Assembly: GCA_021648145.1 (NCBI GenBank) | Contig: JAKITI010000004.1 | Span: 63,848 to 127,847, forward strand | Direction: 5' to 3' | DNA from: Gammaproteobacteria bacterium | GTDB taxonomy: Bacteria; Pseudomonadota; Gammaproteobacteria; JAADGQ01 | Length of the DNA stretch: 64,000 bases | Part shown: one piece after another, positions 11,593-61,402 of the stretch | Numbering within the stretch: the stretch's first letter is position 1 | Layout of the letters: the number at the start of each line of letters is the position of its first letter | Notes under the pieces: generated by a model | Seen by the model: the letters and a program-made list of their open reading frames with translations, nothing else | What the model was told of the DNA's origin: nothing | The model's database searches: none | Made by a program: the position numbers and the translations under genes

Positions 11593-12705
11593 ATGAGATT
11601 AAATAAAATGGCCAAAAAAGTATTATTAATTCAACCAGGTTATGCGCATTACAGGGATGAGTTATTTAGTATTTTGTCTAAAAGATATGATTTGTTTATA
11701 TTGTATGAAAAAAAGAAAAAGGTTTATCCTGGTGCTGAACGACCTAAGGGTGATAATCATAGGTTCATCATACAGACCCCGCTATTTAAATGGCTCAATT
11801 ATATACTTTCTCTCGTGCGTAGTAATCCGGATATTGTTGTTACCTCCACATCTACATCATTAAGAACATTAGTTGCGTATCTATATTCGAGACTTTTCGG
11901 TAAAAAATTTATTCTATGGATACTTGAATGGCAGGAGCCTGTCTATGATATAAATACGTTTGCGGGAAATATTAAGAGACTCAGGAAGGCTATAGCAAAC
12001 AAAATAATTCTGAAGTCTGATGCGTTACTTGTTGGGGGAAGTGCTTCATATAATTATGCTTTGTCGCTTGGGAAAAAAAGTGATGAAATTTTCACGGCTA
12101 CTCAATGTGCTAAAGATTTGTATGCAAATGGTCAAAAAAGAAGAGTAAAAGCCAATGATGTGGTATTTATTTATTTAAGCCGAATTATCAAATGGAAAGG
12201 GCTTGATTTTTTGATAAGAGCATTTTCAAAGCTCGAAAATGAATCAGATAACGTAAAATTGATAATAGCTGGTGACGGACCATTCAGAAAAGAGTGTGTT
12301 GAGCTATGTGAAAATTTGCAAAGTGAAAATGTCACGTTTTTGGGTAGCGTAGACTCTAGTGATGTTAATGATATATATAGTAGTGCTGATATATTTGTTC
12401 TTCCATCTATTACTTACAGAAACAGTTATGAAGCGTGGGGGCTTGTCGTTAATGAAGCTATGAGCATGAAAATGCCTGTAATAACCACTGATGCAGTTGG
12501 AGCAGCTTACGATCTTGTAAAGGATAATGGAATAGTTGTAAAAAATGCTAATGTCGATGAACTTTATCAAGCTATGAAGAAAATTTTATCAATGAATTTG
12601 AATCTTCTTGGAGAAGCATCAAGGAAAATATTTGTGAGTAAAAATGATTATTATAAGATGGCTGATGGTTTTACCAGTGCTATAGAATATGTGTCAGGAA
12701 AATAG
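11593..12705 (+). CDS. glycosyltransferase family 4
   Basis: 370 aa with motif LPSITYRNSYEAWGLVVNEAMSMKMPVITTDAVGA. An alternative start MAKKVLL lies 15 nt downstream of the track start. Confidence 0.8.
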   Translation: MRLNKMAKKVLLIQPGYAHYRDELFSILSKRYDLFILYEKKKKVYPGAERPKGDNHRFIIQTPLFKWLNYILSLVRSNPDIVVTSTSTSLRTLVAYLYSRLFGKKFILWILEWQEPVYDINTFAGNIKRLRKAIANKIILKSDALLVGGSASYNYALSLGKKSDEIFTATQCAKDLYANGQKRRVKANDVVFIYLSRIIKWKGLDFLIRAFSKLENESDNVKLIIAGDGPFRKECVELCENLQSENVTFLGSVDSSDVNDIYSSADIFVLPSITYRNSYEAWGLVVNEAMSMKMPVITTDAVGAAYDLVKDNGIVVKNANVDELYQAMKKILSMNLNLLGEASRKIFVSKNDYYKMADGFTSAIEYVSGK

Positions 12706-12723
12706 AGTTGCGTAGAGGTTTTT

Positions 12724-13794
12724 CTATTTATGATCAATTAAGCAGTGTAAGTATTTTATTAAATCAGCAGCGATATGTTTCCACTCATATAACTTGGCAC
12801 TTTCTCTAATACTTCTGGATTGATAAGAGTCCCTGTTTTCCCATATTTTGGTGATGCCCTTATAAAAGCCTTCTGCGCTGTCATTAATGCAAACACCATT
12901 AGCTTCATGAATAACAGCCTTGTTTTCTTTTGTGGCTGTTGCAATAACAGGCAGACCTGATAATAAATAATCAAATGTTTTTGTCACGGGCTGGCAATCA
13001 AAATAGTCGGTGCAAGGCACAAATGAAACGCCGATATTATGTGAGTCCATTAATGGTTTGAGATTACAAAAAGGGATTTGTCCTAATAAATGGACTGTTT
13101 TCTCCAGCCCATAGTAACGGATTTTTTCTTTTAGTAATGGCATCTCTTTGCCATCTCCTGCTATGGAGTATATAGCATCAATTTTATTACCATAATGTTG
13201 TAAGAATTTCCCAAAGCCTTCAATTGTTTTTGAAATATCACGACCATTCAATGTGCCAATATATAATAATCGAATTGAGTCGAACTGCTTGTCAACTTTA
13301 GAAATTACATCTGAACCTAGCGGTAATATATAGGCCTTCTCTTTAAAACCGAGGCGAACTGATAGTGATTTGGATATGACGGTTACATTGCGAAAAAAAC
13401 GGGATTCAAATTTCATGAAGAAGTCATATGTTGCTCTTTTTAATCTGTTATTTCCAACAGCCCCTGTTCGAACGTCAAATACAAACAAGGCCTTTCTATG
13501 CATTATTTTTAACAGTGAGCAGCCTCTAAAGTATTTTATAAAACATATATCACACTGGGAAGTAGAAATTTCTTTTGAAGCTGCGGATAAATATTTAATG
13601 TTTCGTGCCAATAGCGAGCCATTCCGAGAAATATATTTTACACAGATGCCTTCATGATCAATTTTATCGAAACCATAGTCCCAACATACATATGTAATAT
13701 CGAATTCGTTAGTTAATAATGTTGCGTATTTATATGTATCAACGTGGTATCCCCACTGCTTTTGACAAAGTATAAGTAGTTTTCGCTTTTTCAT
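12724..13794 (-). CDS. glycosyltransferase (GT-B fold)
   Basis: 356 aa. The C-terminal GT-B domain contains FDYLLSGLPVIATATKENKAVI. Confidence 0.65.
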   Translation of the reverse strand: MKKRKLLILCQKQWGYHVDTYKYATLLTNEFDITYVCWDYGFDKIDHEGICVKYISRNGSLLARNIKYLSAASKEISTSQCDICFIKYFRGCSLLKIMHRKALFVFDVRTGAVGNNRLKRATYDFFMKFESRFFRNVTVISKSLSVRLGFKEKAYILPLGSDVISKVDKQFDSIRLLYIGTLNGRDISKTIEGFGKFLQHYGNKIDAIYSIAGDGKEMPLLKEKIRYYGLEKTVHLLGQIPFCNLKPLMDSHNIGVSFVPCTDYFDCQPVTKTFDYLLSGLPVIATATKENKAVIHEANGVCINDSAEGFYKGITKIWENRDSYQSRSIRESAKLYEWKHIAADLIKYLHCLIDHK

Positions 13795-21581: not shown

Positions 21582-22298
21582 TCAAGAAATAGTGCAAAAA
21601 TCTTTCATATATTTTCGGCTGACGGGGATGATCGCACCGCTAACGGTGTGAATCTCTCCTAAACCATTTTCCTGCTTTGTGATCATTTTTATACAGTCTG
21701 GATCGACTAAATGTTGTCGGTAACATCGTACTAATGGAGTATTTTCTTCAAGCACTTTTAAAGAAAGGTCGGTATGAAATTCCTCGCAATTTTTGCCCGT
21801 AACAATATGCACTCCCGTAGTAGTAGTGGAGAATGCACGACAGACATCTTTGACATTGATGAGATAGTTGCAACCATCTTTGTAGCAGGGAATAAATTGC
21901 ATGGTTGTAGATAAGATTTTTACGATATCAGGCTGTGGTCGATAGTCCTCTTTAAGACGCTCTAATGTGATGTTTAAACGATCTGTTTTTACAGGTTTTA
22001 ATAAAAAGTCGATAGCATTTTTTTCAAATGCTTCGATTGCATATTCAGGGTAAGCGGTGACAAAAACAATGCGTGGCATGTCATCTTTATCCAGCATGCG
22101 AAGCATCTCTATGCCTGATATTTTGGGCATGATGATATCAAGAAAAACAACATTCGGGCGCTTGCTGTTGATCTCTTTAATTGCTTCGAATGCATTGGCG
22201 CATTTACCCACGATGTTAAAATCAGGGTCTGCCCCGATCTTTTCTTCCAGATCATCACGCGCGTGAGGTTCATCATCAACAATGAGGGCATTAATCAT
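21582..22298 (-). CDS. LytTR-family response regulator (receiver plus LytTR DNA-binding domain)
   Basis: 238 aa with a receiver domain (ALIVDDEPHARDDL...VVFLDIIMP) and a C-terminal LytTR domain. It overlaps the lytS stop by 4 nt. Confidence 0.85.
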   Translation of the reverse strand: MINALIVDDEPHARDDLEEKIGADPDFNIVGKCANAFEAIKEINSKRPNVVFLDIIMPKISGIEMLRMLDKDDMPRIVFVTAYPEYAIEAFEKNAIDFLLKPVKTDRLNITLERLKEDYRPQPDIVKILSTTMQFIPCYKDGCNYLINVKDVCRAFSTTTTGVHIVTGKNCEEFHTDLSLKVLEENTPLVRCYRQHLVDPDCIKMITKQENGLGEIHTVSGAIIPVSRKYMKDFCTIS

Positions 22299-22301
22299 CT
22301 T

Positions 22302-24110
22302 TTACTCCTTATTATATGGCAGGCGGATATTGACTTGAGTCCACTGCTCCGGTTCACATGAAATAGTAATTCCATAATCCTGACCGTAGCGTATTTTAAT
22401 CCGTTCATCTATTTTCAGTCCGATTCCATGCGGGCTGTTTTTTATATACAGACCCGCATTATCTTCGACGGTCAAGGTCAGCTTATCACTATTTGTCGCA
22501 CAGCTGATCTTGATTACGCCTGTGCCAAGTAATTCACTTGTGCCATGTTTTATGGCATTTTCAACAATCGGTTGTAACGTAAAAACAGGAATCACTTGAT
22601 CAAATAAATACTCTGGAATATCAATATGAATTTGCAAGCGGTCTTCAAAACGTGCTTTTTCTATTGCGAGATAAGATTTGATATGTTCCAGCTCGGATCG
22701 AAGCGTGATGGTATCATCAGATGTTTCCAGGCTTTTTCTGAAAAAATCCGATAAATGATGCAATAAATCACGCGCTCTTTCGGGTTGTTTTTTTGTGATA
22801 TGGCTGATGGTTGCGAGTGCATTATAGAGGAAATGCGGATTGACTTGCGCAGTTAATAGCTTGTATTGGTCTTCAATGCGTAATTCTCGTTGGCGTTCAT
22901 AACGACCGGCGAGAATCTTGCTGGACAGAAGCTCAGCAATATTTTCACCCAGCTTTCTATTAATGTTACGAAATAGTTTATTTTTAGGTTCATATAGCCT
23001 GATGGTACCAATCACCTGATTGTAAACATCATCTTTGAGAGGAATAATCAATACCGAACCCAATCCACAGAACGCTTCGCGTCTGCACTGATAGTTTCGC
23101 CTGAATATCACTTTATTATTCTTAATTGCCTCCAGAGTATCTTCTGAAGCAATGAGTGAGCCGGGTATGTGATGATCATCCCCCAAGCCAGTAAATGCGA
23201 GTAGCCTTTTTTTATCGGTAATGGCGACAGCACCTACTTGGGTTTCCTGTTGTATGATTTCAGTAATTTGCTTGCTGGATTCTGGGTTAAATCGAGTAAA
23301 TATGATGCTTGCGGTTTTCTCTGCAATTTGCCATGCCGTCGTGCTGCTGCGGAGTGTGTCACAAGCACGTTTTTGTTCCTTGATCATATACATGATCAAT
23401 GCTACACCTGCAGAGTTAGCAATTAACATCGGCGGCGCAATCTCCTTAATCAAAACCCAAGTCTTGGATATTTCGTTAAAAAATAGTCCGAATAGTAAAA
23501 TAATTAACATGTGTCCCAGCACGGCAATCAGGGTGACTAAAAAGACAGCTCTAGGAGAAAATAGACGCTCCATTCGGCCGCGATGTGATAAGTAGTAGTG
23601 TACAAAACCTGCTAGAAGTCCTTCGAATGTGGTGGCCACCGCACAGGCGATATCAATATAGTGAATAGGGTCCGTCGGTGATGACATGTACCAAACTCGA
23701 TGAATTCCCCCAGTGAACCCGACAAAAAAGCCAACGACAGGGCCACCCAATAGTCCACCGAGTACCGCCCCAATGGCTCTGGTGTTGGCTATTGCACTCT
23801 CTGATTCAAATGATTGCTCGCTTAGAAATGTTCCCAGAATACAAAAACCGGAAAATACCAGATAGATAACAATTTTATCTGGTAGAGAGAGCGTGTTGTT
23901 GACCAGGTCAGTAAACACAGGTGTTTTGGTGAATAAATAAGCTAAACCTAAAAACACGAGAACGTGCAGCAATAAAGGAGTGATGTGTTCTAAAAATAGA
24001 AGGTCTTGCATGAGTGTTTCGCTGTTATAAAAATATTTATACGACAGATTAACACAAGAAAAAAATCCACTCAGATGATATGGCTGCCACTTAGAAGCTA
24101 TATCAACCAC
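22302..24110 (-). CDS. LytS/BtsS-type sensor histidine kinase (5TM-Lyt plus GAF plus His_kinase plus HATPase)
   Basis: It has an N-terminal multi-TM 5TMR-LYT region, a GAF-like middle, the His_kinase motif NPHFLYNALATISHI and an ATPase domain. The real start is probably MQDLLFLEHI near 24011. The track start at 24110 would overlap the regulatory box. Confidence 0.85.
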   Translation of the reverse strand: MVDIASKWQPYHLSGFFSCVNLSYKYFYNSETLMQDLLFLEHITPLLLHVLVFLGLAYLFTKTPVFTDLVNNTLSLPDKIVIYLVFSGFCILGTFLSEQSFESESAIANTRAIGAVLGGLLGGPVVGFFVGFTGGIHRVWYMSSPTDPIHYIDIACAVATTFEGLLAGFVHYYLSHRGRMERLFSPRAVFLVTLIAVLGHMLIILLFGLFFNEISKTWVLIKEIAPPMLIANSAGVALIMYMIKEQKRACDTLRSSTTAWQIAEKTASIIFTRFNPESSKQITEIIQQETQVGAVAITDKKRLLAFTGLGDDHHIPGSLIASEDTLEAIKNNKVIFRRNYQCRREAFCGLGSVLIIPLKDDVYNQVIGTIRLYEPKNKLFRNINRKLGENIAELLSSKILAGRYERQRELRIEDQYKLLTAQVNPHFLYNALATISHITKKQPERARDLLHHLSDFFRKSLETSDDTITLRSELEHIKSYLAIEKARFEDRLQIHIDIPEYLFDQVIPVFTLQPIVENAIKHGTSELLGTGVIKISCATNSDKLTLTVEDNAGLYIKNSPHGIGLKIDERIKIRYGQDYGITISCEPEQWTQVNIRLPYNKE

Positions 24111-36995: not shown

Positions 36996-38747
36996 ATGGA
37001 TTCTGATTATTTTAGTCAAATGCTCTATGCCTTCCCAGGGATTTCCGTACTGGCACCCTGGTTCAACAGCCTACTCATCATAGATATTTTACAGCAGATG
37101 GCCCTGCTATTCGTTGTTGCCTTCCTGTTTAGCCGTTCAGGAGCCTTCGGGCTGTTGGTCAAGGATTCACTTCGGACTCGTGACTGGCTGTTGCTCTACC
37201 TGATTTTTTTTGCTATCTCAGCTATGGGCTCTGTATTGGCTTCCAATGTTCCACTGACGCCAGGCGGCGATGACTGGACTCAGGTGGATACTCGTTCCAT
37301 CGGCGCAGTGCTAGCGGGGTTTTTGGGTGGTCCCTTGCTTGGAACTGCGGTTGGCTTTACCGCTGGCCTCTATCGGTGGAGCCTGGGCGGGCCTACTGCT
37401 ATGGCGGGTTTCATAGGAACCACATTAGTCGGGCTTATAGCAGGTCTGGTCTACATGTTTTTTCTGAAAAAAAATCAGGAGGTACGTTTTGGTTGGAAAA
37501 TTGCGGTAGTCGCCACCTGCGTGGGTGAGCTGATCATGAAGGTCTTGGTGCTGCTTACCGTTCAACCATTCGATAAAGCACTGGCTCTTATTCAGATTAC
37601 CACCGTTCCCAGTTTAATTGGCAATAGTATCGGAGCCGCCTTGTTCGTTACCATATTGAATGATAAAGAGCGTCTTGGTGTCTTGCATACCACCACCGCA
37701 CTGCGTATGGCCAAGCGTTTAGTTGATGTTCTGAAATATGGCTTCAATAAAAGTGCTGCAAGGGCAATCGTCAACATCATCCGCGGAGAGACCCAGATTG
37801 CAACAGTAGCGATCACTGATCATACCAATAAAGTCATGGCAATAACCGGAGTCGGAGCCGATCATCATCACGTCGGTGATGAAATTGTCGCTGACCTGGT
37901 TCAAAACGCCATTGACCAACAGCGGGTTATCTTTATAAATGGTTCAACCGACCGGCTCCATTGTGCAACTTCTGCCAACTGCCCATTACATTCTGCGCTC
38001 ATCGCTCCACTTATTGTGGAGGGAAACGTACTGGGTGTATTGTTGCTGATTGAACCAAAGCGACGTTTTTTCCCCAAGTTGAACCGTGCTTTGGGCGTGG
38101 GCGTTGCCGAGCTTTTATCCGAGCAGATGCAATTAGCTATGTATCAAGAGCAACTGGCCAGCGCAAAACACAAGCTTCTTATTGCACAGATAAATCCACA
38201 TTTTTTATCCAATGCATTGAACACCATCTCTGCCATTGTTCGAACTGATACAGCTCGCGGCAGAGAGCTGTTGACCAAGCTGGCGTTCCTGATGCGCAAG
38301 AGCATAAAATATGAAAATGAAATCAGCACCCTAGAGGAAGAGTTGGAACATATGGATGCACATCTCAGTATCGATCTGGCTCGTTATGGCGACAAACTTC
38401 GAATAGAAAAAAATATCGAACCGAAACTGATGAATGCACTACTTCCCAGTTTTGTTCTTCAGCCATTGGTAGAAAATGCAGTCAAACATGGAACATCTCG
38501 CCTATTGATCCCTGGCATTATCCAGATACGCGCCTATCAAACAGGTGATGGATTGATTAAAATTGAGGTCAAAGACAATGCAGGACAATATCAGCCTAAA
38601 TTATCAGCGACTCAAGGCCTTGGCATGAAAAACGTCGAAGGAAGAATCAAAACGCTATTTGGTCGCCAATATGGATTAAGTATCGACTGTTCACCGAACC
38701 AGCACACCAGCGTTACAATTACCATACCATTCAGGGATCAGCTATGA
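36996..38747 (+). CDS. LytS/BtsS-type sensor histidine kinase, second paralog
   Basis: 583 aa with the same architecture as the 22302..24110 protein and the His_kinase motif NPHFLSNALNTISAIV. Confidence 0.85.
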   Translation: MDSDYFSQMLYAFPGISVLAPWFNSLLIIDILQQMALLFVVAFLFSRSGAFGLLVKDSLRTRDWLLLYLIFFAISAMGSVLASNVPLTPGGDDWTQVDTRSIGAVLAGFLGGPLLGTAVGFTAGLYRWSLGGPTAMAGFIGTTLVGLIAGLVYMFFLKKNQEVRFGWKIAVVATCVGELIMKVLVLLTVQPFDKALALIQITTVPSLIGNSIGAALFVTILNDKERLGVLHTTTALRMAKRLVDVLKYGFNKSAARAIVNIIRGETQIATVAITDHTNKVMAITGVGADHHHVGDEIVADLVQNAIDQQRVIFINGSTDRLHCATSANCPLHSALIAPLIVEGNVLGVLLLIEPKRRFFPKLNRALGVGVAELLSEQMQLAMYQEQLASAKHKLLIAQINPHFLSNALNTISAIVRTDTARGRELLTKLAFLMRKSIKYENEISTLEEELEHMDAHLSIDLARYGDKLRIEKNIEPKLMNALLPSFVLQPLVENAVKHGTSRLLIPGIIQIRAYQTGDGLIKIEVKDNAGQYQPKLSATQGLGMKNVEGRIKTLFGRQYGLSIDCSPNQHTSVTITIPFRDQL

Positions 38748-39469
38748 CCATAAACGTTATTCTCATAGACGATGAAACTTTGGCGCAAGACGAGCTGGCA
38801 TATCTTTTGGAACGGCACGATGACTTTCGCATCGTTGCCCGATGTGAAGATGTTTTCTCTGCCCTGCGTAAAATTCGCGAACACAAACCAGATGCTATTT
38901 TTTTGGACATTATCATGCCCGGACAAGATGGTTTTACGCTGCTCGACTATATGGCGCCGGAGGAACACCACCCTCACGTCGTGGTTGCCACTGGAGGGGA
39001 AAGTGATTTTGCAGTGCGTGCCTATGCAGAGGGTGTGCTGGATTATCTAACAAAACCCATCGAAGAGGAGCGTTTTGATAAAGCGATAGAACGAATTAGG
39101 AGTCAGGTTTCAGACCCAAGTATCGAAGTACTCCCTTATCCAGATCGCATACTCGAAATTATTCCGTGTATTTTCAATCATCGAATAAAATTTATTAAAC
39201 CTAAAGAGATAGAATTTGTACGGTCTGATAGCCGTGGTATTTACGTCATATGTGCAGAAAAAGATTTTTATACCGAATTAACATTAGCTACTTTCGAGAC
39301 TAAAACCACACTCATTCGTTGTCATCGTCAACACATGATAAATCTTGTACATATTGACGAACTTATTCCACTGGAAAATGGTTTAGCAGAAATTAAAACA
39401 ATATCTGGGCATCGCGTTCCGGTCAGTCGTCATTATCTCAAATGTTTAAAGGAAAAATTAGGGGTGTAA
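38744..39469 (+). CDS. LytTR-family response regulator, second paralog
   Basis: 241 aa with a receiver domain (VILIDDETLAQDEL...AIFLDIIMP) plus a LytTR domain. It has a 4-nt overlap with lytS2. Confidence 0.85.
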   Translation: MTINVILIDDETLAQDELAYLLERHDDFRIVARCEDVFSALRKIREHKPDAIFLDIIMPGQDGFTLLDYMAPEEHHPHVVVATGGESDFAVRAYAEGVLDYLTKPIEEERFDKAIERIRSQVSDPSIEVLPYPDRILEIIPCIFNHRIKFIKPKEIEFVRSDSRGIYVICAEKDFYTELTLATFETKTTLIRCHRQHMINLVHIDELIPLENGLAEIKTISGHRVPVSRHYLKCLKEKLGV

Positions 39470-51190: not shown

Positions 51191-52606
51191 ATGGCAAATC
51201 AAACTTTTGATGCTGGTGTGCAGGATTACAAGCTAACTTATTGGACGCCTGATTATACGCCGCTAGATACAGATTTATTGGCATGTTTTAAGGTTGTAGA
51301 GCAAGAAGGTGTTCCACGTGAAGAAGCAGCAGCAGCAGTAGCAGCAGAAAGCTCAACAGGCACATGGACAACTGTATGGACTGATTTGTTATCAGACATG
51401 GAGTATTACAAAGGACGTGCCTACAGAATCGAAGAAGTTCCTGGTGATAAGGAAGCTTTTTATGTATTCATCGCTTATCCACTGGATCTGTTTGAAGAAG
51501 GTTCTGTTGTAAACGTACTGACTTCTTTGGTTGGTAACGTATTCGGATTTAAAGCAATTCGTTCTTTAAGACTTGAAGATATCCGTTTCCCAGTTGCATT
51601 TGTTAAAACTTGCATGGGTCCTCCAAGTGGTATCCAGGTTGAACGCGACAAATTAAATAAATACGGTCGCCCAATGTTGGGTTGTACTATCAAGCCTAAA
51701 TTAGGTCTGTCTGCCAAGAATTACGGTCGTGCAGTTTATGAGTGTCTTCGTGGTGGTCTTGATTTCACTAAAGATGATGAAAACATTAACTGTCAGCCTT
51801 TCATGCGCTGGAGAAATCGTTTTGAATTCGTTGCTGAAGCGGTTCATAAAGCACAAGCCGAAACGGGTGAGGTTAAAGGTCATTATCTGAACGTTACTGC
51901 GGCAGATTGTGAAGCGATGATTGAACGTGCAGAATTTGCTAAAGAATTGGGTATGCCAATCATTATGCATGACTTCTTGACCGCTGGTTTTAGTGCGAAT
52001 ACTTCGCTGGCTAAATGGTGTCGTAAAAATGGCATGTTGTTACATATCCATCGCGCAATGCATGCAGTAATTGACCGTAATCCTCGTCACGGCATTCATT
52101 TTCGTGTTCTTGTTAAATGTTTACGTTTGTCTGGTGGTGATCATCTGCATACTGGAACCGTTGTTGGTAAGTTGGAAGGTGATCGTGCGACAACTTTGGG
52201 TTTTGTTGACTTGTTGCGTGAAGATTTCATTCCAGAAGATCGTGCTCGTGGAATCTTCTTTGATCAAGACTGGGCCTCTATGCCTGGTGTATTCGCAGTA
52301 GCATCGGGTGGTATTCATGTATGGCACATGCCTGCACTGTTAAATATCTTTGGTGACGACTCTGTTCTACAGTTTGGTGGTGGAACACAAGGTCATCCAG
52401 ATGGAAATGCAGCGGGTGCAGCAGCAAACCGTGTTGCATTGGAAGCTTGTGTTAAAGCTCGTAACGAAGGTCGTGATTTAGAAAAAGAAGGTGGTGACAT
52501 CTTACGTGAGGCGGCTCAGCACAGTAAGGAACTTGCTGTTGCTCTTGAGACTTGGAAAGAGATCAAGTTTGAGTTTGATACTGTTGACAAGCTAGACGTA
52601 CGTTAA
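51191..52606 (+). CDS. cbbL: RuBisCO large subunit, form I (carboxysomal type)
   Basis: 471 aa containing [21 protein letters not shown], including the carbamylated-Lys motif KDDE. Confidence 0.95.
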
Positions 52607-52653
52607 TTTTTTATTAGTTAATATATATATAAGCATTTAATAGGAGTTCAATT

Positions 52654-52998
52654 ATGAGCCAACAAATTCAAGAAGATTACCGCACAAAGTACACCCTGGA
52701 GACCTTTTCTTTTTTGCCTCCATTAACTTCTGATGAGATCTATAACCAGATCGTTTACATTATTAATCAAGGCTGGACACCTGCTCTTGAGCATGAAACA
52801 CCTGAGTCAGCTTCTGCCCATTACTGGGGTATGTGGAAACTACCATTCTTCGGTATGCGTGATCCTAATGAGGTTTTGCAAGAAATTGAGGCGTGCCGTC
52901 AACAATACCCAGATCACCTGATCAGAGTGTTGGGATATGATAGCTATACTCAATGTCAAGGTCACAACTTTGTGGTTTATCGCCCTAGAGGCATGTAG
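52654..52998 (+). CDS. cbbS: RuBisCO small subunit
   Basis: 114 aa containing WTPALEHE and MWKLPFFG. Confidence 0.9.
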
Positions 52999-53031
52999 TC
53001 ATCAGCAAAGAAAGAGTATGGAGCCTTTAAT

Positions 53032-54993
53032 ATGAGTAATTCTATAAATGACGTGAGCGGACGCTCGCAGTCAAAGGCACGTCGTAAGTCAAAGCTTTCT
53101 GGTGGAAAATCAGGTGTAGCTAGAGCGACAAGAGTCCCTAGAAAAAAATCTGAGCCAGTCATTTTGGCTTCAGGTTCTAGTGCTTCTGTTGTAGCTGCGC
53201 CTGTTAAGTCTGAATTCACTTCAGCTTCTACAAAGCGTCAATCGCCTTCTCTGCAATCCATTACAGTTGCTGAAGGGCGTGCGATGGCGAAGCAAAAAAG
53301 AAAGCGGATGATTCGTGGTAAAACTGGGTCATCTCAAACAAATACGCAAGGTTCTTTGAAAACGAGAAAAAAGCCTGATGAGATGATTGAGCTTCGTTCT
53401 ACTACTACAAGTAAAAGCGCTGCTTTGAAGGGTAAAAAAGTTTCTCCTGCTATTAATAAATCGCAGGTTAAATCTGAATCATCAAAGGGTCGCAATATGT
53501 CAAAAGCCAGGCGTAAAGCTCTTGTCAAAGGCAAAGCTGGTCAGTCCTCTTTTAGTAGTCAGTCTAGCTCTGTTGCCAAGATGGCTAATCCCGGCGCTTC
53601 GGTAAGAGATGTGGCTCGAGTGGTAAGGGCAGAGCGCTGCAGCAAAGGCAAGACAGTTTGTTCTGCTGTTACAAAGTCTTCTAGGCGACAAAAGCGTAAA
53701 AGTGTAAATGATGCTCCAGAAAAAGTTTCTTTATCTGAAACTTTGAGTGGTAGCGTTGTTTCTGGCGTGCATGTGGGTCAAGGCCAGTTAACTGGCGCAG
53801 AGAAAGGTGCTTGCAAAAATGTGAGTGGTACTGAGTATTTGGGAATGGAAGAGTTTGTAACGCACTGCTCTACTGTTCCTGAAGCATCACCTTCAAAAGT
53901 TTCTTTTACTCAAACAAGTAAAGGAAGAACGGTGAGTGGTACTGAGTTTGGGCAAGACAAATCTGTCACGGGTGATAGAGCGGGGCTATGCTCTTCAGTG
54001 ACGGGTACAGAGTACCTTCCTGCGGATCAAGGTGATTTGTTTTGTGGTGCTGATCAAGCGTTAACGAAGTCTGACACAGGTTCTATGATTCCACGTCTAA
54101 TGAAGCCGAGTTGTACGCCTAAGTCAAAAGCTGTTCCTGCTAAAGTGGTTATTTCAACGACAATGGCTGGGAATATGACGACTGGCACACAAGTTGGAAG
54201 AGGCTTGTCCGTGACTGGTGATGAACGTGGTTACTGTCAAGCAATTACTGGTATTGGTTATCAAGGTAAAGAGGAGGTTTCGGCTGTTTGTGAAACGAAA
54301 TCTCCTGTTTCCCCGCCTGCTAAAGTATTAGTTTCTGGTACGGTGGGTGGTCAAATTGTGACGGGCGATCGTAGTGGCAGCGTAAGTGGAATGACCGGTG
54401 CAGAAATTGGAAGCTGTCAGCCTGTGAGCGGAACTGCTTATGTAGGCACAGAGTTTGCCTCAGATAGTTGTTCAGTAGAAGCTCAGGCATCTATCGCTCA
54501 GCGTTCAAAACAAGCAGCGGTTCAAAGTAGCCAGCCTATGACGGGTGTTCGGCCCGGTATGATGGGTCTAACAGGGGCTCAAAAAGGCGCTTGTGAAGTT
54601 GTTTCTGGAACGCATTATCAATCTGCTTCTGAAATGAGTCAGTTGTGTGAGGGCAGTGGTGCTGCAACACTTGGTGAGTCTGATTATCCTATGATAATTG
54701 GTCAAGCGACTGCAGCAACTCTTGCGGGTAGTGTTACAGCGCCTTCGGTTTCACCACCGAGTGCTATCACCGGTGATGGTTGGGAAAAAGGTAATAAAGT
54801 GACGGGTACTGATGGTGCTTGGGCTGCAAAGCGTAATCCTTCTATCCGAGGGGTTCAAGGGCAGTCTCCAATGAGCGCATCTAACTTTAGACCGCACTCA
54901 ATGCCTGAGGTACCTCAGAGTCCAATTACAGGTTCCTCTGGAAATACCACGGAAGGGAGTAAAGTGACCCTTTCTGGTGGCGCAAGAGCGTAA
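53032..54993 (+). CDS. csoS2: alpha-carboxysome scaffold protein CsoS2
   Basis: 653 aa and Lys/Arg/Ser/Gly-rich. It has repeated VTG.E, G.....VSGT.Y and C-containing repeats (GAEKGACKNVSGTEYLG, DRAGLCSSVTGTEYL, ERGYCQAITGIGYQG, EIGSCQPVSGTAYVG). It sits between cbbS and csoSCA. Confidence 0.8.
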   Translation: MSNSINDVSGRSQSKARRKSKLSGGKSGVARATRVPRKKSEPVILASGSSASVVAAPVKSEFTSASTKRQSPSLQSITVAEGRAMAKQKRKRMIRGKTGSSQTNTQGSLKTRKKPDEMIELRSTTTSKSAALKGKKVSPAINKSQVKSESSKGRNMSKARRKALVKGKAGQSSFSSQSSSVAKMANPGASVRDVARVVRAERCSKGKTVCSAVTKSSRRQKRKSVNDAPEKVSLSETLSGSVVSGVHVGQGQLTGAEKGACKNVSGTEYLGMEEFVTHCSTVPEASPSKVSFTQTSKGRTVSGTEFGQDKSVTGDRAGLCSSVTGTEYLPADQGDLFCGADQALTKSDTGSMIPRLMKPSCTPKSKAVPAKVVISTTMAGNMTTGTQVGRGLSVTGDERGYCQAITGIGYQGKEEVSAVCETKSPVSPPAKVLVSGTVGGQIVTGDRSGSVSGMTGAEIGSCQPVSGTAYVGTEFASDSCSVEAQASIAQRSKQAAVQSSQPMTGVRPGMMGLTGAQKGACEVVSGTHYQSASEMSQLCEGSGAATLGESDYPMIIGQATAATLAGSVTAPSVSPPSAITGDGWEKGNKVTGTDGAWAAKRNPSIRGVQGQSPMSASNFRPHSMPEVPQSPITGSSGNTTEGSKVTLSGGARA

Positions 54994-56538
54994 TTGGAAA
55001 AAGTGATGTTAAGCACAAGCTATCGCAAAAGCTCTATGTTCTCTAGATCGAAGGCTAAGCCGCCAGCTCTTGGTATGCGTCCTATAAAAAGGACCTTTAA
55101 GGCAGGTGGCAGTCTTGATGTGGCTATGAAGATGGAGAGTTTTTCGAGCTTTAATAGCAACCCTCTTGTTAGGGTTGAGCAAAATAATACTTTTCATGAT
55201 TATGAAGTTCGCATCAAAGCTGGCTTTGATGGTGTTGAGTCTGTTGTTCAGCAGTTGGTTGTAAAACAAAAATGTCTAGACTTTCTGAAAACTGCTTATT
55301 TACTAATCCAGGAAAAGTTAAATCTTTCACTCAGTAATGAGCAGTTAAACATTCTTAGTAAAGATCAGTTTGACAGTAATGATTTTTATGCGGAATGCAT
55401 TTTTGCGCAGTTTATGAGAATGTCAGAAGATTTTTTTAAAAATGACCCGTTATGTGGGCAAAATAAAATTGAAGCAGAAAATGTTTTCAAAAAATTGGGT
55501 TTTCATGCGGTTGGAATTGCGGCATGTTCTGATGGACGTTTAGCTCATTTTTCTACCTATGTATTGCGATTACCCTACTCGTTACCTCGAAGGAAGTTTC
55601 ATGCTGGAACTTTATTTGATGTCAGTGAGAGTGTACGTAATTGGGTCTTTATTGAGCACGGGCGTTTCAGAGAAGGAATACCTAACTCAGCTGAAGAAGC
55701 AACTAAATATTTAAAAATTGCCGTATATCATTTCTCTAAGTCTGACCCAGAGCATCAAGGTTGTGCCGCGCACGGTAGTGATGATAGCAAGGCCGCGACA
55801 AGTGCTTTGTCAAAGTTAAATGATTTTAAACAAGCAATTGAAAATAGATTTGGGTGTGGGTCAACCATTAAGACATTATTAATCGGTATAAATACAGATG
55901 ATGATAGCTTGAAGATTCACGTCCCTAATGCGCATGGAAAAATGTGTTTGCAACGTTTTGTTGAGACGGATGCGCTTTTTTTACAAACAATCGGGCTCAA
56001 TGCCGAGCAGGCTAAGTTAAGCATTAAAAAATCTGTTGGTGTATGTGGTGGAAAAAAGGTAGCGAACTCTTCAGATTCGATGAACGCTTTAATCTGTTGG
56101 TTAATTGAGAATAATTTTTCCCAGATAGAGTACGTTAAAAGCTATGAAAATGGTTTCTATCATGATACGGGTCATGCAGAGCGTTTTATCGGTATTGGTA
56201 GTGGATTTGAAGAGGTTCAACTTCGTAATTTAAGTTACTACAGTTTCTTGAATACAGTTGAAGAGGGTTTGAATGATGTCAATATTGGCATCAAAATTTT
56301 TACGGGATTGAATTTAAGTAAAGGTTTACCAATTCCTATTATTATTCGCTCTGATTATGATGGCAAAGTGCCTGGCTCAAAAAATAGAGCTCAGGAGAAG
56401 GTTTTTCGTATCGAGCAAGCATTACATGAGCGCTACCAAGAGTTGTCTATGCAAGGAAAATTAAAGTCTATGTGTACTTTAAAAGACAACACTGGTCACA
56501 AACCAGCTGAAAGAGTTTCAAACTTGGTAGAGCAATAA
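54994..56538 (+). CDS. csoSCA: carboxysomal beta-class carbonic anhydrase CsoSCA (CsoS3)
   Basis: 514 aa in the canonical position after csoS2. The start codon is uncertain: TTG at 54994, GTG at 55003 or ATG at 55006. Confidence 0.75.
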   Translation: MEKVMLSTSYRKSSMFSRSKAKPPALGMRPIKRTFKAGGSLDVAMKMESFSSFNSNPLVRVEQNNTFHDYEVRIKAGFDGVESVVQQLVVKQKCLDFLKTAYLLIQEKLNLSLSNEQLNILSKDQFDSNDFYAECIFAQFMRMSEDFFKNDPLCGQNKIEAENVFKKLGFHAVGIAACSDGRLAHFSTYVLRLPYSLPRRKFHAGTLFDVSESVRNWVFIEHGRFREGIPNSAEEATKYLKIAVYHFSKSDPEHQGCAAHGSDDSKAATSALSKLNDFKQAIENRFGCGSTIKTLLIGINTDDDSLKIHVPNAHGKMCLQRFVETDALFLQTIGLNAEQAKLSIKKSVGVCGGKKVANSSDSMNALICWLIENNFSQIEYVKSYENGFYHDTGHAERFIGIGSGFEEVQLRNLSYYSFLNTVEEGLNDVNIGIKIFTGLNLSKGLPIPIIIRSDYDGKVPGSKNRAQEKVFRIEQALHERYQELSMQGKLKSMCTLKDNTGHKPAERVSNLVEQ

Positions 56539-56559
56539 CTATTTGGGATCTTTTAGTTT

Positions 56560-56808
56560 ATGAAAATTTTAAAAGTTGATAAGACACTGGTTTCGACAAA
56601 TAGAATTTCAAGCATGGATCACAAGCCTTTGTTGGTTGTGCGTGAGAAAGATGGTGGAACACCACAAGTGGCTGTTGACCCTGTAGGCTGTAAACCAGGT
56701 GATTGGGTGCTTTGTGTTGGTAGTTCTGCTGCAAGGGATGCCACGGGTATAAAAGCTTACCCGAGTGACTTAACCATTGTTGGTATTATCGATAAGTGGG
56801 AGGTGTGA
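56560..56808 (+). CDS. csoS4A: carboxysome vertex protein CsoS4A (EutN/CcmL family)
   Basis: 82 aa. MKILKVDKTLVSTNRI...KPGDWVLCVGSSAARDA...IVGIID is the EutN/CcmL pentamer fold signature. Confidence 0.85.
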   Translation: MKILKVDKTLVSTNRISSMDHKPLLVVREKDGGTPQVAVDPVGCKPGDWVLCVGSSAARDATGIKAYPSDLTIVGIIDKWEV

Positions 56809-56814
56809 TTTCTT

Positions 56815-57060
56815 ATGGAAATACACCAGGTTAAGCAAAAATTAATTGTAACGAGCAGGTTGGATGGCTTAGGTCACTTGCCTATTAAAGTGCTGCAAAG
56901 TGTATCGGGTGCAAGACTTGTTGCACTTGATCCAATCGGTGTTAAAGCAGGGGACTGGGTGTTTACAATTGCAAATTCAGCGGCCAGAACTGCCGCAGGT
57001 GATGACAAAATTTTAACGGACTTAACAGTCGCTGGAATTATTGATAACTGGCAATCATAA
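56815..57060 (+). CDS. csoS4B: carboxysome vertex protein CsoS4B (EutN/CcmL family)
   Basis: 81 aa and a paralog of csoS4A (KAGDWVFTIANSAARTA...VAGIID). Confidence 0.85.
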   Translation: MEIHQVKQKLIVTSRLDGLGHLPIKVLQSVSGARLVALDPIGVKAGDWVFTIANSAARTAAGDDKILTDLTVAGIIDNWQS

Positions 57061-57087
57061 ATAAAATTTAAACTTAGGAGAAAAACC

Positions 57088-57366
57088 ATGAGCACAGAAT
57101 ACGGTATTGCTTTAGGAATGATAGAGACACGCGGGTTAGTTCCTGCCATTGAAGCAGCAGATGCGATGACTAAAGCAGCAGAAGTTCGCCTGGTCAGTCG
57201 TGAATTTGTAGGCGGTGGTTATGTCACTGTATTGGTTCGTGGTGAAACGGGCGCAGTCAATGCCGCAGTTCGTGCGGGCGCTGATGCCTGTGAGCGTGTT
57301 GGAGATGGCCTTGTTGCTGCCCACATCATTGCGCGTCCTCATAATGAATTAGGGTCTATGCTATAA
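57088..57366 (+). CDS. csoS1: carboxysome shell hexamer CsoS1 (BMC domain)
   Basis: 92 aa with the canonical BMC sequence ALGMIETRGLVPAIEAADAMTKAAEVRLV. Confidence 0.95.
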   Translation: MSTEYGIALGMIETRGLVPAIEAADAMTKAAEVRLVSREFVGGGYVTVLVRGETGAVNAAVRAGADACERVGDGLVAAHIIARPHNELGSML

Positions 57367-57436
57367 ATAGCAAAGTCTATTATTATAATAATTAGAGTAC
57401 TTTAGAGGGGAAAACCCTCTACGAAAGGAAAAAATT

Positions 57437-57985
57437 ATGAGTTATCGCCCATTTATGCAAGGCAATGCTATGTCTGGTGCAGCTGGTTTTCCTAGATTTG
57501 ATAGTTCTACACAGCTAGAGAGTAATTCTAAAATACTAGGGTATTTAGGACGTTCTTTAAGCTTGGAATTTACCTCTGGTCAGCATTATTTGGCCCAGGC
57601 TTCTTTGGCTAAGTTTCGTAATGAGGCTCATTATGCGCAAGGTTTTGTGACCTTGGCGAATGAAGAGTTTCAGCACGCCAACTTAATTACTGATCGCATC
57701 ATTACTCATGGTGCTTTACCTGCGGGTAGCGTTCTAAGCCCTTCGACTTATTCTGGCTCTATCGTTGATGCGTTGAAAAGTTGTGAGGCAAGAGAAATTG
57801 CTTTAATCCAGCTTTATGGTGAGGCAGCTCAGTATTGTGCAAACATGGGAGCAGCAGAAGATAGCTCTTTATTTAACAGGTTGTTTGAAGAAGAGCAGGC
57901 TCAGTTGGTTAGAATTAGAGGCTGGATCAAAGAATATTATCATGTGATGAATGTAAACCCTGCTATGACTAGGAGTTTTGCATGA
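57437..57985 (+). CDS. ferritin-like (bacterioferritin-like) protein of alpha-carboxysome loci
   Basis: 182 aa with the ferritin-like helix pattern E..HY......L..EE.QH. This is the position where bfr-like genes are found in cso operons. Confidence 0.65.
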   Translation: MSYRPFMQGNAMSGAAGFPRFDSSTQLESNSKILGYLGRSLSLEFTSGQHYLAQASLAKFRNEAHYAQGFVTLANEEFQHANLITDRIITHGALPAGSVLSPSTYSGSIVDALKSCEAREIALIQLYGEAAQYCANMGAAEDSSLFNRLFEEEQAQLVRIRGWIKEYYHVMNVNPAMTRSFA

Positions 57986-58257
57986 AAAGTAACTGGAGGA
58001 AGAAGGAAAAGCCTCCTTTATTAGAAGCTAGATTTGAGTTTACAGAATTTAGGGTTTTGATGTCTTTTTTAGATTCCTTAGCAGAGGTTGCTGAAGAAAT
58101 GGATCACCACCCTAATATCAGTTTTAGCCGTCAGCATGTATCAGTTGTGATTTATTCAAAGACGGAAACACTTAATGATACTGATTTTAAACTCGCAGAA
58201 GAGATAGATGTGAGGCATAAACAGTCGATAGACTTTTCAAAAGGAGTTCTTGAATGA
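57982..58257 (+). CDS. pterin-4a-carbinolamine dehydratase-like protein (alpha-carboxysome RuBisCO assembly factor acRAF-like)
   Basis: 91 aa with PCD/DCoH-family core EEMDHHPNISFSRQHVSVVIYS. It overlaps its neighbours by 4 nt on each side. Confidence 0.7.
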   Translation: MKSNWRKKEKPPLLEARFEFTEFRVLMSFLDSLAEVAEEMDHHPNISFSRQHVSVVIYSKTETLNDTDFKLAEEIDVRHKQSIDFSKGVLE

Positions 58258-58598
58258 GCAAGCTAGATGATAAAAAAAAACAAGCTGTTATTAATCAAAA
58301 ATCTGTACAAAAAGCAGTTAAACCTATCAAAACAACAAAAAAATCTGTAATAAAAAAAATAAATCCGGCTGTAAAAGCTATGCCTAAAAAAGATAATGTT
58401 AAGTTGGTAGCCAGTAAGTCAGTAGTTGTTGTTAAGCCATCCTCAGCTAATGCTCAAAAAAAACCAGTGTCAGCGAAGTCTTCACCTGCTAATACTCAAA
58501 AAAAATCAACAAAAACAAAGAAGTTAATAAGCAAGCCAATGAAGCATATTGCAGATCAAATTAAAGAGTTACCTAGCAAAAGGGTTTGGCCTGACTAG
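58254..58598 (+). CDS. Lys-rich intrinsically disordered protein ending in WPD, a candidate alpha-type McdB (carboxysome positioning adaptor)
   Basis: 114 aa, low-complexity and K/S/A/V-rich (KKSVIKKINPAVKAMPKKDNVKL...KKSTKTKKLISKP). The C-terminus reads ...LPSKRVWPD*. It is translationally coupled to the acRAF-like gene. Confidence 0.45.
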   Translation: MSKLDDKKKQAVINQKSVQKAVKPIKTTKKSVIKKINPAVKAMPKKDNVKLVASKSVVVVKPSSANAQKKPVSAKSSPANTQKKSTKTKKLISKPMKHIADQIKELPSKRVWPD

Positions 58599-58630
58599 TT
58601 AAATTATTAGTGCTTGGTTCAAAATTAATG

Positions 58631-58655
58631 GCGGGAATGTTACCCCGCTTTTTTT
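58631..58655 (+). terminator. weak rho-independent terminator after the cso operon
   Basis: GCGGG-aatgttac-CCCGC followed by TTTTTTT. Confidence 0.4.
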
Positions 58656-58854
58656 ATGTGAACTTGCTTTGTAGCGAAGTTGGTATTTATTTGAAAAAAT
58701 AGCAACAACCTATTGACTACTCTCTATACATGAGAGTTGTATTACCAACTTCTATTCTAGTACTATTTTTCGTATCATACTCGCACTAAAAATAAATGTT
58801 CTATACACAGAGGCGAATACACCTCTCTTAACAGTATAGAAAAAGGTATAAATT

Positions 58855-59841
58855 ATGGGATTAGACAGTTTATTAATACCAGCAGTTCTATTTTTTGCAT
58901 TAGGTGCTTTTGCAAAATTTATTAATTCGGATCTCAAATTCCCTGAAGGGATGACAAAAGGGATTGGTCTATACTTATTAATGGCGATTGGTTTAAAAGG
59001 TGGTGTTGCATTAAGTGATGCTGATTTTGGCTTGGCAATTTCCAGTATTATTTGGGGCGTGATTCTTGGTTTCCTATTACCGTTGATTGGGTATGCACTT
59101 TTAAGGTTCAGAAATAAAATAAATCCTTTTGATGCAGCCGCTATTGCAGCACACTATGGTTCTGTCAGTGCAGCTACTTTTTTAACTGCCGTTGCTTTCT
59201 TAGAAGTTTCTGGTGTGGAATATGAAAGCTACCCAATTATTATGATGGTTATTATGGAAACGCCAGCCATTATTATTGGTCTTGTATTAGCGGCTCTAGC
59301 TCGAAAAAAATTAGCAGCAGCTTCTGGAGAGGCTATCCCTAAAACAGAGTGGAGCCCCTTACTTAAAGAGGCATTTACTAATGGTAGCGTGATTGTTTTG
59401 ATAGGTGCTTTAGTGATCGGTACTGTGGCAACGCCAGAGGCGATGGCTAAAGTGACTCCATTTACGAGTGATATATTCATGGGTGTGCTTTGCTTGTTTT
59501 TATTGGATATGGGCATGGAAGCAGCCAAAAAAGCGGGTACGCTTAGGAAGGTGGGTGGCGTTCTAGTTGCATTTGGTGTTGTGATGCCGCTTATTGGTGG
59601 TACGATTGGTGTGGTTGTTGGGGTCTCTTTTCTGGGGTTTTCGGTCGGAGGCGCTTTCTTGTTAGCCATATTGTCTGCCAGTGCATCGTATATTGCCGTA
59701 CCTCCAGTGATGCGTTACGGGGTGCCTGAAGCAAACTCATCGTATTACCTAACCTTATCATTGGGGATTACTTTCCCATTTAATGTCGTAATCGGAATAC
59801 CATTGTTTTATCAAATGGCGATTATGTACTCTGCACTCTAA
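58855..59841 (+). CDS. sbtA: SbtA-family (DUF897) putative Na+-dependent bicarbonate transporter
   Basis: 328 aa. Blocks co-linear with cyanobacterial SbtA include IGLKGGVAL, HYGSVSAATFLTAVAFLEVS, LLDMGMEAAKKAGTLRKV and SASASYIAVPPVMRYGVPEANSSYYL. Confidence 0.75.
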   Translation: MGLDSLLIPAVLFFALGAFAKFINSDLKFPEGMTKGIGLYLLMAIGLKGGVALSDADFGLAISSIIWGVILGFLLPLIGYALLRFRNKINPFDAAAIAAHYGSVSAATFLTAVAFLEVSGVEYESYPIIMMVIMETPAIIIGLVLAALARKKLAAASGEAIPKTEWSPLLKEAFTNGSVIVLIGALVIGTVATPEAMAKVTPFTSDIFMGVLCLFLLDMGMEAAKKAGTLRKVGGVLVAFGVVMPLIGGTIGVVVGVSFLGFSVGGAFLLAILSASASYIAVPPVMRYGVPEANSSYYLTLSLGITFPFNVVIGIPLFYQMAIMYSAL

Positions 59842-59855
59842 AAAGGAGCTAAATT

Positions 59856-60179
59856 ATGCCTGCTACAATGTGCCCTGGAAAATCTGTACACATCATTGTT
59901 AATGCAACCTTTGAGAATGAACTGGTTAGAGTATTAGATAAAGTCGGTGTCACTGGTTATACGCAGCTAGATGCTAGAGGAAATGGCTATTCTGGTGTTC
60001 AAGATGGTCATTCAGAAGGTGAGACAAATGTGATGTTTATTGTCTTGGTCACCTCTGAAGTCGCAGAAGTATTGATTGAAAGTCTGATTGATTATATCAA
60101 GCGTGGATACCCTATTGTTTCTTATACTAGCGATGTTGAAGTTTTGACTACTAATAAGTATGGCAAGCCGACAATATAG
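59856..60179 (+). CDS. sbtB: PII-like signalling protein, SbtB-type
   Basis: 107 aa with a PII-fold length and pattern, located immediately after sbtA. Confidence 0.65.
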   Translation: MPATMCPGKSVHIIVNATFENELVRVLDKVGVTGYTQLDARGNGYSGVQDGHSEGETNVMFIVLVTSEVAEVLIESLIDYIKRGYPIVSYTSDVEVLTTNKYGKPTI

Positions 60180-60188
60180 GATATTCAG

Positions 60189-60809
60189 ATGACACCCTTA
60201 GTTCTTGCTACCGGAAACCCTCATAAGGCGATTGAAATTGAATCAATGCTTGCCCCGTATAAGCTTGACCTCCATCGCCAGACTGAATTTTTTTCACAAG
60301 AGGTTGAAGAGGATGGGCTAAGTTATCTTGAAAATGCTTTAAAGAAAGCAAGATATGCAAGCCAAAGAACAGGGCTGCCTGCGCTTGCGGATGATTCAGG
60401 AATAGAGGTTGATATGCTTAAGGGGAGGCCTGGAATATATTCAGCACGTTACTCTGAAGGCTTTAATGGTTTGCATGCATCGGACAGACAGAACAATGAA
60501 ATGTTATTACATGAGTTACAAGGAGCCATTTCTTCTCAAAGATACGCCTGTTATATTTGCGTGATGGTATTCATTCGCCATGCTTTAGATCCTAACCCTG
60601 TCATAGGTTTAGGGAAATGGTGTGGTGAAGTTTTGTCTCATCCTAAAACCTTGTGCGGTGTTGGTTACGATCCTATTATGTGGTTTAGTGAATACAATAA
60701 AACGGGTTCAGAAATATCTATGGAGCTTAAGAATCAAGTGAGCCATAGAGCGAAAGCGCTACAGAGTCTTTTGCAAAATTTAAGACAGGAAGACTCATGG
60801 TCGAATTAA
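60189..60809 (+). CDS. rdgB: dITP/XTP pyrophosphatase (Ham1/RdgB family)
   Basis: 206 aa, co-linear with E. coli RdgB: [48 protein letters not shown]. Confidence 0.85.
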
Positions 60810-61402
60810 GAACCTATGTTTTTTTAGATTCATTACAACCTCAACTAGCTTCTTATATGGGAACTGTTTCTATGGGGTTCTTGCCCGTCCCTGGTGATTC
60901 CTGTTTATGGATAGAGGTCGCTCCTGGGATGGCGGTTCACCGTGTTTCAGATATTGCTTTGAAAGCGTCTAATGCCAGGTTGGGCCAACAAGTTGTTGAG
61001 CGAGCTTATGGCTCAATGGTGATTCATCATCGTGACCAAAGCGATGTATTAGAGTCTGGAAATCACATTCTGCGCTACTTAAAGACCGAAGATGCTGATC
61101 GTCCATCTTGCCTGGTCAAATGGAATGAAGTTATTTGTAATATTACTGTAGATCATGCAACCTTAATTAATCGAGATAATCGTCGAGGTTCTATGGTTTT
61201 ACCTGGCCAAAGTATTTTCATTATGGAAACCGAGCCTGCCGGGTATATCATTTATGCTGCAAATGAAGCTGAAAAATCTTCAAACATCACCTTGGTAGAA
61301 GCAAAAGCAGTGGGTGCTTTCGGTCGATTGATTATGTCAGGTAAAGAAGCTGATATTATGGAAGCCTCTAGAGCTGCAATGCTTGCTTTGCAAAGACTAT
61401 AG
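60797..61402 (+). CDS. tandem-BMC-domain shell protein, CsoS1D-like (tentative)
   Basis: 201 aa with an internal duplication: [36 protein letters not shown] versus [34 protein letters not shown]. It ends with a BMC-like [31 protein letters not shown]. Confidence 0.45.

Follow-up and report, generated by a model that had tools for sequence, protein, structure and literature searches.

A small open reading frame (ORF) located directly behind acRAF in an alpha-carboxysome (cso) operon of a gammaproteobacterium probably encodes an operon-internal paralog of the carboxysome adaptor McdB, i.e. a Type 2 or orphan alpha-McdB, which would dock on the shell rather than engage the ATPase McdA and would tune carboxysome positioning or aggregation. 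The ORF, in the following termed mcdB, comprises 114 codons plus stop and lies at positions 58254–58598 (+) of the DNA stretch studied here, 64,000 nucleotides of contig JAKITI010000004.1 (metagenome-assembled genome (MAG) GCA_021648145.1); this stretch is called the window and all positions refer to it. In the public annotation the product is listed as ‘hypothetical protein L3J70_03895’.

The alpha-McdB family has been surveyed by MacCready et al. 2021 (PMC8359340; Mol Microbiol 116:277). According to this study its members are 51–169 amino acids long, show low hydrophobicity, a compositional bias toward A, P, K, S and T and near-complete disorder, and all of them terminate in V(I)WPD, the tryptophan of which is invariant. 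Those encoded behind mcdA carry a conserved charged N-terminus. Three gene arrangements were described: in one of them the cso operon contains mcdB only, and in another the operon contains an ‘orphan’ while mcdA and a second mcdB reside at a distant locus; the orphan class was named Type 2. No mcdA was found in 9% of the genomes, 76% of which were incomplete (PMC8359340).

The product and its genetic setting

The product has the sequence MSKLDDKKKQAVINQK...KHIADQIKELPSKRVWPD and its last residues are PSKRVWPD, followed by the stop codon; no other ORF of the window ends in WPD. Lysine makes up 26.3% of the residues, serine and valine 11.4% each, alanine 8.8% and proline 7.9%, and A, P, K, S and T together account for 59%. 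The description in the original prediction of a lysine-rich, low-complexity protein ending in KRVWPD was accurate. With a pI of 10.6, a net charge of +25 and a grand average of hydropathy of -0.78 the protein is strongly basic and hydrophilic, and W112 is its sole aromatic residue. The GC content of the ORF is low (32% compared with 41.5% for the window) because lysine is encoded by AAA codons. A tandem-repeat search of the ORF yielded just an A-rich 10-nt pseudo-repeat.

Disorder was judged by proxies, namely a charge-hydropathy plot and AlphaFold2 (AF2), whereas the published method for alpha-McdBs is PONDR. In the charge-hydropathy plot the product falls into the disordered region. AF2 returned no globular fold (predicted template modelling score 0.20, mean predicted local distance difference test (pLDDT) 66) and short helices at residues 3–21, 29–41 and 99–104; as it was run on the single sequence only, this prediction is weak evidence. 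No Pfam or NCBIfam family matched the product at E<=0.01. Taken together, a size of 114 amino acids, low hydrophobicity, the A/P/K/S/T bias, predicted disorder without a coiled-coil, the V(I)WPD end and the location in a cso operon are all found in this protein, so that the proposed alpha-McdB identity agrees with all published sequence-level features of the family. The predicted class also stood, as the Type 2, arrangement (ii)/(iii), of PMC8359340, but not as a new idea, having been published in 2021.

The cso operon (51191–58598, +; ORFs and Pfam matches) consists of cbbL, cbbS, csoS2, csoSCA, csoS4A, csoS4B, csoS1, a ferritin-like gene, acRAF and mcdB; by Pfam labels the same gene order is found in locus L001. 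The gene directly upstream of mcdB (57982–58257, +; 91 amino acids) encodes a RuBisCO assembly factor resembling pterin-4a-carbinolamine dehydratase (PCD). Its Pfam Pterin_4a match (5.5e-14) together with scores far under every NCBIfam cutoff for true PCDs (equivalogs) fits the identity of a carboxysomal acRAF. The ATG of mcdB (58254–58256) overlaps the TGA of acRAF (58255–58257) in an ATGA of 4 nt (58254–58257), and a Shine-Dalgarno sequence, AAGGAG (58241–58246, +), lies 7 nt 5′ of the ATG. Of 30 orthologous loci, 17 show the 4-nt overlap as well; in 10 of the remaining 13 the two genes are separated by 0–16 nt, usually with a GGAG-like site. We infer from this arrangement (58241–58257, +) that mcdB is translationally coupled to acRAF, as had been predicted; overlap and ribosome-binding site are directly visible. 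Starting 31 nt past the mcdB stop codon, a GC-rich hairpin resembling an intrinsic terminator (GGCGGGAATGTTACCCCGC, followed by T7; 58630–58656, +) was found; the cso operon therefore ends with mcdB. The hairpin is also kept in L084.

Conserved ends in syntenic orthologs

A word-indexed homology search with the ORF gave no match except the ORF itself. Using phmmer against 1.8 billion representatives we obtained three true relatives (P0101, P0103 and P0104), all of which end in RVWPD; the remaining matches were low-complexity noise to long proteins. Since sequence search is nearly blind for the mcdB family, we turned to synteny. Loci were anchored on the ferritin-like neighbour gene, 80 of them from species-representative genomes, supplemented by closer metagenomic relatives.

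Directly behind acRAF, almost every related proteobacterial locus that reaches beyond this gene carries a small ORF (56–145 amino acids) ending in R[VI]WPD. These loci belong to Thiomicrorhabdus, Hydrogenovibrio, Thiomicrospira, Thiosulfatimonas, Sulfurivirga and Halothiobacillaceae-type bacteria. The motif R-[VI]-W-P-D is present in 38 of 38 unique C-termini of post-acRAF proteins, with isoleucine in place of valine once; conservation of the WPD end among orthologs at the same locus, a check proposed along with the original prediction, is therefore complete. It is also present in 12 of 12 proteins encoded next to mcdA, i.e. in all 50 unique related C-termini. In the window the invariant residues R110-V-W-P-D114, the putative carboxysome-binding element, are encoded at 58581–58595 (+). 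The cyanobacterial cso loci examined contain no post-acRAF ORF of this kind, in agreement with the published account (PMC8359340).

Conservation in the operon-internal copies of Thiomicrospiraceae-like genomes reaches further. Most post-acRAF orthologs share the 17-residue pattern HIADxIKx[FL][PS]xxRVWPD, and the C-terminal module of the window protein, KHIADQIKELPSKRVWPD (residues 97–114; 58542–58595, +), fits it exactly. The histidine occurs in 27, the isoleucine in 32, the alanine in 33, the aspartate (or glutamate) in 32, [FL] in 30 and [PS] in 31 of the 38 sequences. The predicted short helix at residues 99–104 lies within this module. The HIAD element was not found in the 12 C-termini of proteins encoded next to mcdA.

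The closest relative, L084, is 95.6% identical to the window at the nucleotide level over 6.9 kb, and its orphan ORF likewise encodes 114 amino acids, 93% of which are identical. All 8 amino acid changes fall between residues 36 and 91, whereas the first 35 and the last 23 residues are unchanged; the ratio of nonsynonymous to synonymous substitution rates (dN/dS), based on 15 substitutions, is 0.29. The ORF is a genuine gene, with selection acting mostly on its two termini.

This evidence bears directly on the explanation that the product is a nucleoid protein of the histone-H1/AlgP type with no link to carboxysomes, which the original prediction raised as an alternative, or else that the low-complexity ORF is spurious. 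A sequence rich in lysine, alanine, proline and serine with short KK-containing repeats would suit such a protein, as would the lack of a family match and the deviating GC content. However, the position behind acRAF and a frame-dependent R[VI]WPD that is invariant among 38 unique orthologs from several genera speak against it, as do the Shine-Dalgarno site with its conserved start/stop overlap, a dN/dS below 1 with unchanged termini and the lack of the ORF in cyanobacterial cso loci. Given the synteny and the frame-dependent conservation we regard this explanation as highly improbable and effectively excluded; an AlgP- or H1-like identity also finds no Pfam or NCBIfam match.

The middle part of the protein varies among relatives. 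The metagenomic relative P0103 (61 amino acids) keeps the first 9 and the last ∼20 residues and has lost about half of the middle; with orthologs of 56–145 amino acids the length of the disordered linker appears to be freely variable. In two loci of species-representative assemblies (L025, 8070–8687 (-); L013, about 12500–13070 (-)) stretches of N disrupt the Type 1 mcdB next to mcdA. In assemblies the repetitive, low-complexity central part of mcdB apparently breaks or becomes masked, and this may add to the under-annotation of the family.

Type assignment and the location of mcdA

In Halothiobacillus neapolitanus McdB the 20 residues at the N-terminus, especially K7, are necessary and sufficient for McdA binding; the N-terminal helix docks on McdA, and McdB alone does not bind DNA (PMC12139897). 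In order to define what characterizes the McdA-associated (Type 1) proteins at this end, we derived a motif from the mcdA-adjacent genes found in this analysis and not from the H. neapolitanus McdB sequence. Ten of the mcdA-adjacent McdBs found share the N-terminal core SKLxxS[VIL]R[RK]xK, which maps onto K7, L8, I12 and K13 of the H. neapolitanus protein (PMC12139897). In Chromatiales-type loci a ParA of 207–208 amino acids is directly followed by an McdB that starts with MTESDKTGEKLAASIRKTKA and ends in RVWPD, which is the canonical Type 1 arrangement.

The window protein does not match the Type 1 motif: its best profile score is 12.0, compared with 34–39 for Type 1 proteins, and shuffled versions of the protein itself do equally well (p=0.20). 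The idea that its ‘SKL’ start is a vestigial McdA-binding peptide was dropped for this reason, the similarity being no better than that of shuffles. Judged by gene position and by motif, the window protein is of Type 2. Its N-terminus is nevertheless basic. The segment KLDDKKKQAVINQKSVQKA (residues 3–21; 58260–58316, +) is predicted by AF2 from the single sequence to form a helix (pLDDT about 81), and the first 20 residues contain 6 lysines and 2 aspartates, compared with 4–6 lysines in Type 1 proteins and a median of 2 in Type 2 proteins. An N-terminus of the form MSKL..KKK is kept in the close relatives P0101, P0103 and L084. Over its whole length the window protein is the most lysine-rich and most cationic of the 38 orthologs (26% lysine compared with a median of 13%, net charge +25 compared with +10).

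As stated in the original prediction, no McdA or other ParA-type ATPase was detected in the window: the motif KGGxGK[ST] is absent from all six frames of the 64 kb, and a tblastn search of the window with two McdA proteins gave a best E of 2.9 (positive control 2e-133). An operon-internal mcdB without adjacent mcdA is also found in most of the Thiomicrospiraceae-like loci L004–L036 and in L084–L087, and a locus of a Halothiobacillus MAG (L032) contains the orphan copy only, without mcdA. Other loci carry both paralogs. In L088 the orphan follows acRAF and mcdA lies with a 54-residue Type 1 mcdB about 3.3 kb downstream, just beyond csoS1D; in L025, L029, L090, L092 and L096 the two paralogs are found within 10 kb. 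In the closed genome of Hydrogenovibrio crunogenus (CP032096) the orphan is part of the locus at 942–949 kb, and mcdA with a Type 1 mcdB is located at ∼1,116 kb, ∼170 kb away. The absence of mcdA from a 64-kb window therefore says little.

A candidate partner locus was found in the relatives. The sister MAG GCA_054043885.1 contains the cso locus with the orphan (L084) and, on a separate contig (L099), mcdA together with a Type 1 mcdB. This contig of 4.8 kb has a GC content of 41.8%, similar to that of the window, and encodes an epimerase, McdA (213 amino acids), a Type 1 McdB of 59 amino acids (MTKKLGSKLASSVRQAKAKQ...SSRRVWPD) and AsmA. A further contig, L097, is 96.2–96.4% identical to L099 and stems from the metagenome GCA_006240915.1, in which the window ORF is present in an exact copy as well. 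On account of the matching divergence and the co-occurrence, L097 is likely the mcdAB locus of the organism from which the window stems. The window mcdB is thus probably orphan only locally, and the option named first in the original prediction, an McdA encoded elsewhere, is very probably correct. At 3.3 and 4.8 kb the recovered mcdAB contigs are short; we suspect, as a guess and no more, that MAG binning readily misses contigs of this size.

In L088 (GCA_054015895.1) the GC content is 53% compared with 41.5% for the window and the tetranucleotide correlation with the window is only 0.23, while the ferritin-like protein is 80% identical to that of the window. In McdA, L088 and L090/L092 share 92% identity; the ferritin-like genes of L090/L092 belong to another, 144-residue type. 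This mismatch suggests that cso and/or mcdAB modules have moved laterally between lineages.

Further genes of the window were noted. The BMC-H gene csoS1 (57088–57366, +) is present in a single copy in this operon, compared with three copies in H. crunogenus and two in L090, L092 and L096. Directly on the 3′ side of the cso terminator a gene of the SbtA family (Pfam Sbt_1, 1.4e-110) and a gene for a P-II-like protein of 107 amino acids (58855–60179, +) resemble a bicarbonate transporter pair of the SbtA/SbtB type, which is kept in L084–L088, L090, L092 and L096. They are followed (60189–61402, +) by a gene for a Ham1/RdgB-like nucleoside triphosphate pyrophosphatase, which overlaps the start of a csoS1D-like tandem-BMC gene by 13 nt; the nearest NCBIfam of the latter is CcmP at a score below cutoff (230 bits compared with 340). 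The Ham1 gene is directly followed by csoS1D in L084–L088 and in H. crunogenus as well. Outside this region two pairs, each consisting of a multi-pass membrane protein of ∼600 amino acids and a protein of ∼240 amino acids (21582–24110, -, and 36996–39469, +), resemble paralogous LytS/LytTR-type sensor kinase/response regulator pairs by eye from the ORF list.

Possible role and relation to known McdB proteins

According to our favored explanation, the Type 2 McdB would be made together with the carboxysome components and dock on the outer shell via its C-terminal tryptophan-acidic motif, by analogy to H. neapolitanus McdB, whose association with carboxysomes requires the tryptophan and can be brought about by the C-terminal motif alone (PMC11321042). 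The HIADxIK helix could possibly aid docking of RVWPD, and the cationic disordered chain would project into the cytoplasm. Lacking the McdA-engaging peptide, the protein would leave McdA unstimulated. The Type 1 McdB that is encoded with mcdA at the distant locus would either share the shell sites with it or be its competitor for them, and the ratio of Type 2 to Type 1 would set how strongly carboxysomes are coupled to the McdA gradient on the nucleoid. Modulation of McdA-engaging shell sites by Type 2 proteins has been suggested in PMC8359340. As a cationic coat the Type 2 protein may additionally prevent carboxysome aggregation.

Several points weigh against this explanation. Both the shell binding and the tuning role of the Type 2 protein are extrapolated from Type 1. 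The published Type 2 class is said to be without a charged N-terminus, whereas the window protein has 6 lysines within 20 residues and a predicted N-terminal helix. Among the close McdA clusters, which carry accessions of other MAGs or none, no McdA with an accession of the window MAG was found, as judged by proximity to the GenBank accession MCF6235504.1. The link via L097 and L099 depends on a sister MAG, with the usual caveat of binning, and on co-occurrence in one metagenome, and the dN/dS value rests on just 15 substitutions. Finally, the role of the McdA-less paralog is described in a 2026 review as still a topic of ongoing study.

Given the 6 lysines and the predicted helix at the N-terminus, contact with McdA or another ParA/MinD ATPase has to be considered. 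The protein could then be a fully functional adaptor whose basic N-terminal helix binds and stimulates a distal McdA or another such ATPase, and the cell would possess two working McdBs or use this one as the main adaptor. The lysine count is in the range of Type 1 and above the Type 2 median, the predicted helix resembles the one that docks on McdA in H. neapolitanus, the N-terminus is kept in close relatives, and basic N-termini are used by ParA partners in general (PMC12139897). However, the motif score (12 compared with about 37) does not exceed that of shuffles, a lysine occupies the hydrophobic position equivalent to I12 of the H. neapolitanus protein, and a canonical Type 1 McdB is retained directly behind mcdA in the same lineage. 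As the protein is lysine-rich throughout, charge at the N-terminus is not specific, and a helix predicted from a single sequence is weak evidence. We consider a functional adaptor unlikely.

A different possibility is positioning or tethering without McdA; an McdA-independent role, for example in condensate formation, was also mentioned in the original prediction. RVWPD would hold the shell, and the cationic chain would attach directly to DNA of the nucleoid or build a condensate together with CsoS2, RuBisCO or the shell. This would suit the most cationic of the operon-internal copies, as well as the occurrence of orphan McdBs in genomes without detected McdA (PMC8359340) and the lack of an McdA for the annotated MAG among the close clusters; McdBs have also been found to phase-separate in vitro, within the alpha family only that of H. 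neapolitanus (PMC11321042, PMC8359340). On the other hand, H. neapolitanus McdB by itself shows no DNA binding, the sister MAG and the metagenome with the exact ORF copy each contain a pair of mcdA and Type 1 mcdB, and most of the mcdA-less genomes were incomplete. The high charge is a peculiarity of the lineage; it is the termini that are conserved. We regard this explanation as quite improbable. With somewhat less reserve, although still as a doubtful proposal, we put forward that the operon-internal copy may do more than passively compete with Type 1 McdB and may be a distinct module, in which HIADxIKx[FL][PS]xxRVWPD would bind another shell site, or bind with another affinity, than the bare RVWPD of Type 1, and that in this lineage the +25 chain could tether the carboxysome directly to nucleoid DNA or RNA. 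If true, carboxysome anchoring or the prevention of aggregation would gain a layer that needs no ATPase.

For annotating the gene in genomes of sulfur oxidisers, the invariant R[VI]WPD end of a product encoded directly behind acRAF offers a simple rule. The biological question touched here, the job of a second, McdA-less McdB paralog, was already posed in 2021, and the window is no demonstration of an McdA-free positioning system. What is added is modest: the C-terminal module in its extended form, the coupling to acRAF as a conserved trait, and a variant of unusually cationic character whose N-terminus is charged.

Among the known systems, beta-McdB of Synechococcus elongatus PCC 7942 shares with the window protein the invariant C-terminal tryptophan, disorder, an N-terminus of basic character and, putatively for the window protein, the role of a carboxysome adaptor for a ParA-type ATPase, but it belongs to a different carboxysome type, forms oligomers, contains a central coiled-coil and Gln-rich region and lacks the WPD end (PMC8359340). 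H. neapolitanus McdB as a Type 1 protein is similar in being small and cationic, in its near-complete predicted disorder and in its terminal RVWPD; it differs in being encoded right after mcdA and in having the N-terminal McdA-binding peptide, both of which the window protein lacks. The closest likeness is to the Type 2 alpha-McdBs such as that of Thiohalospira halophila. These are likewise small and disordered, are encoded in the cso operon without adjacent mcdA, end in V(I)WPD and show the A/P/K/S/T bias; the Type 1 N-terminal motif is missing. A second mcdB next to a distant mcdA, described for one arrangement of the class, was found here in the sister MAG and in H. crunogenus. Within this class the window protein differs by its strongly basic N-terminus, by a lysine content and net charge that are the highest of the 38 orthologs, and by the extended module, which it shares with its Thiomicrospiraceae-like relatives and which we did not meet in the literature examined. 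At the level of sequence, the comparison supports the window mcdB as a further member of the published Type 2 alpha-McdB class.

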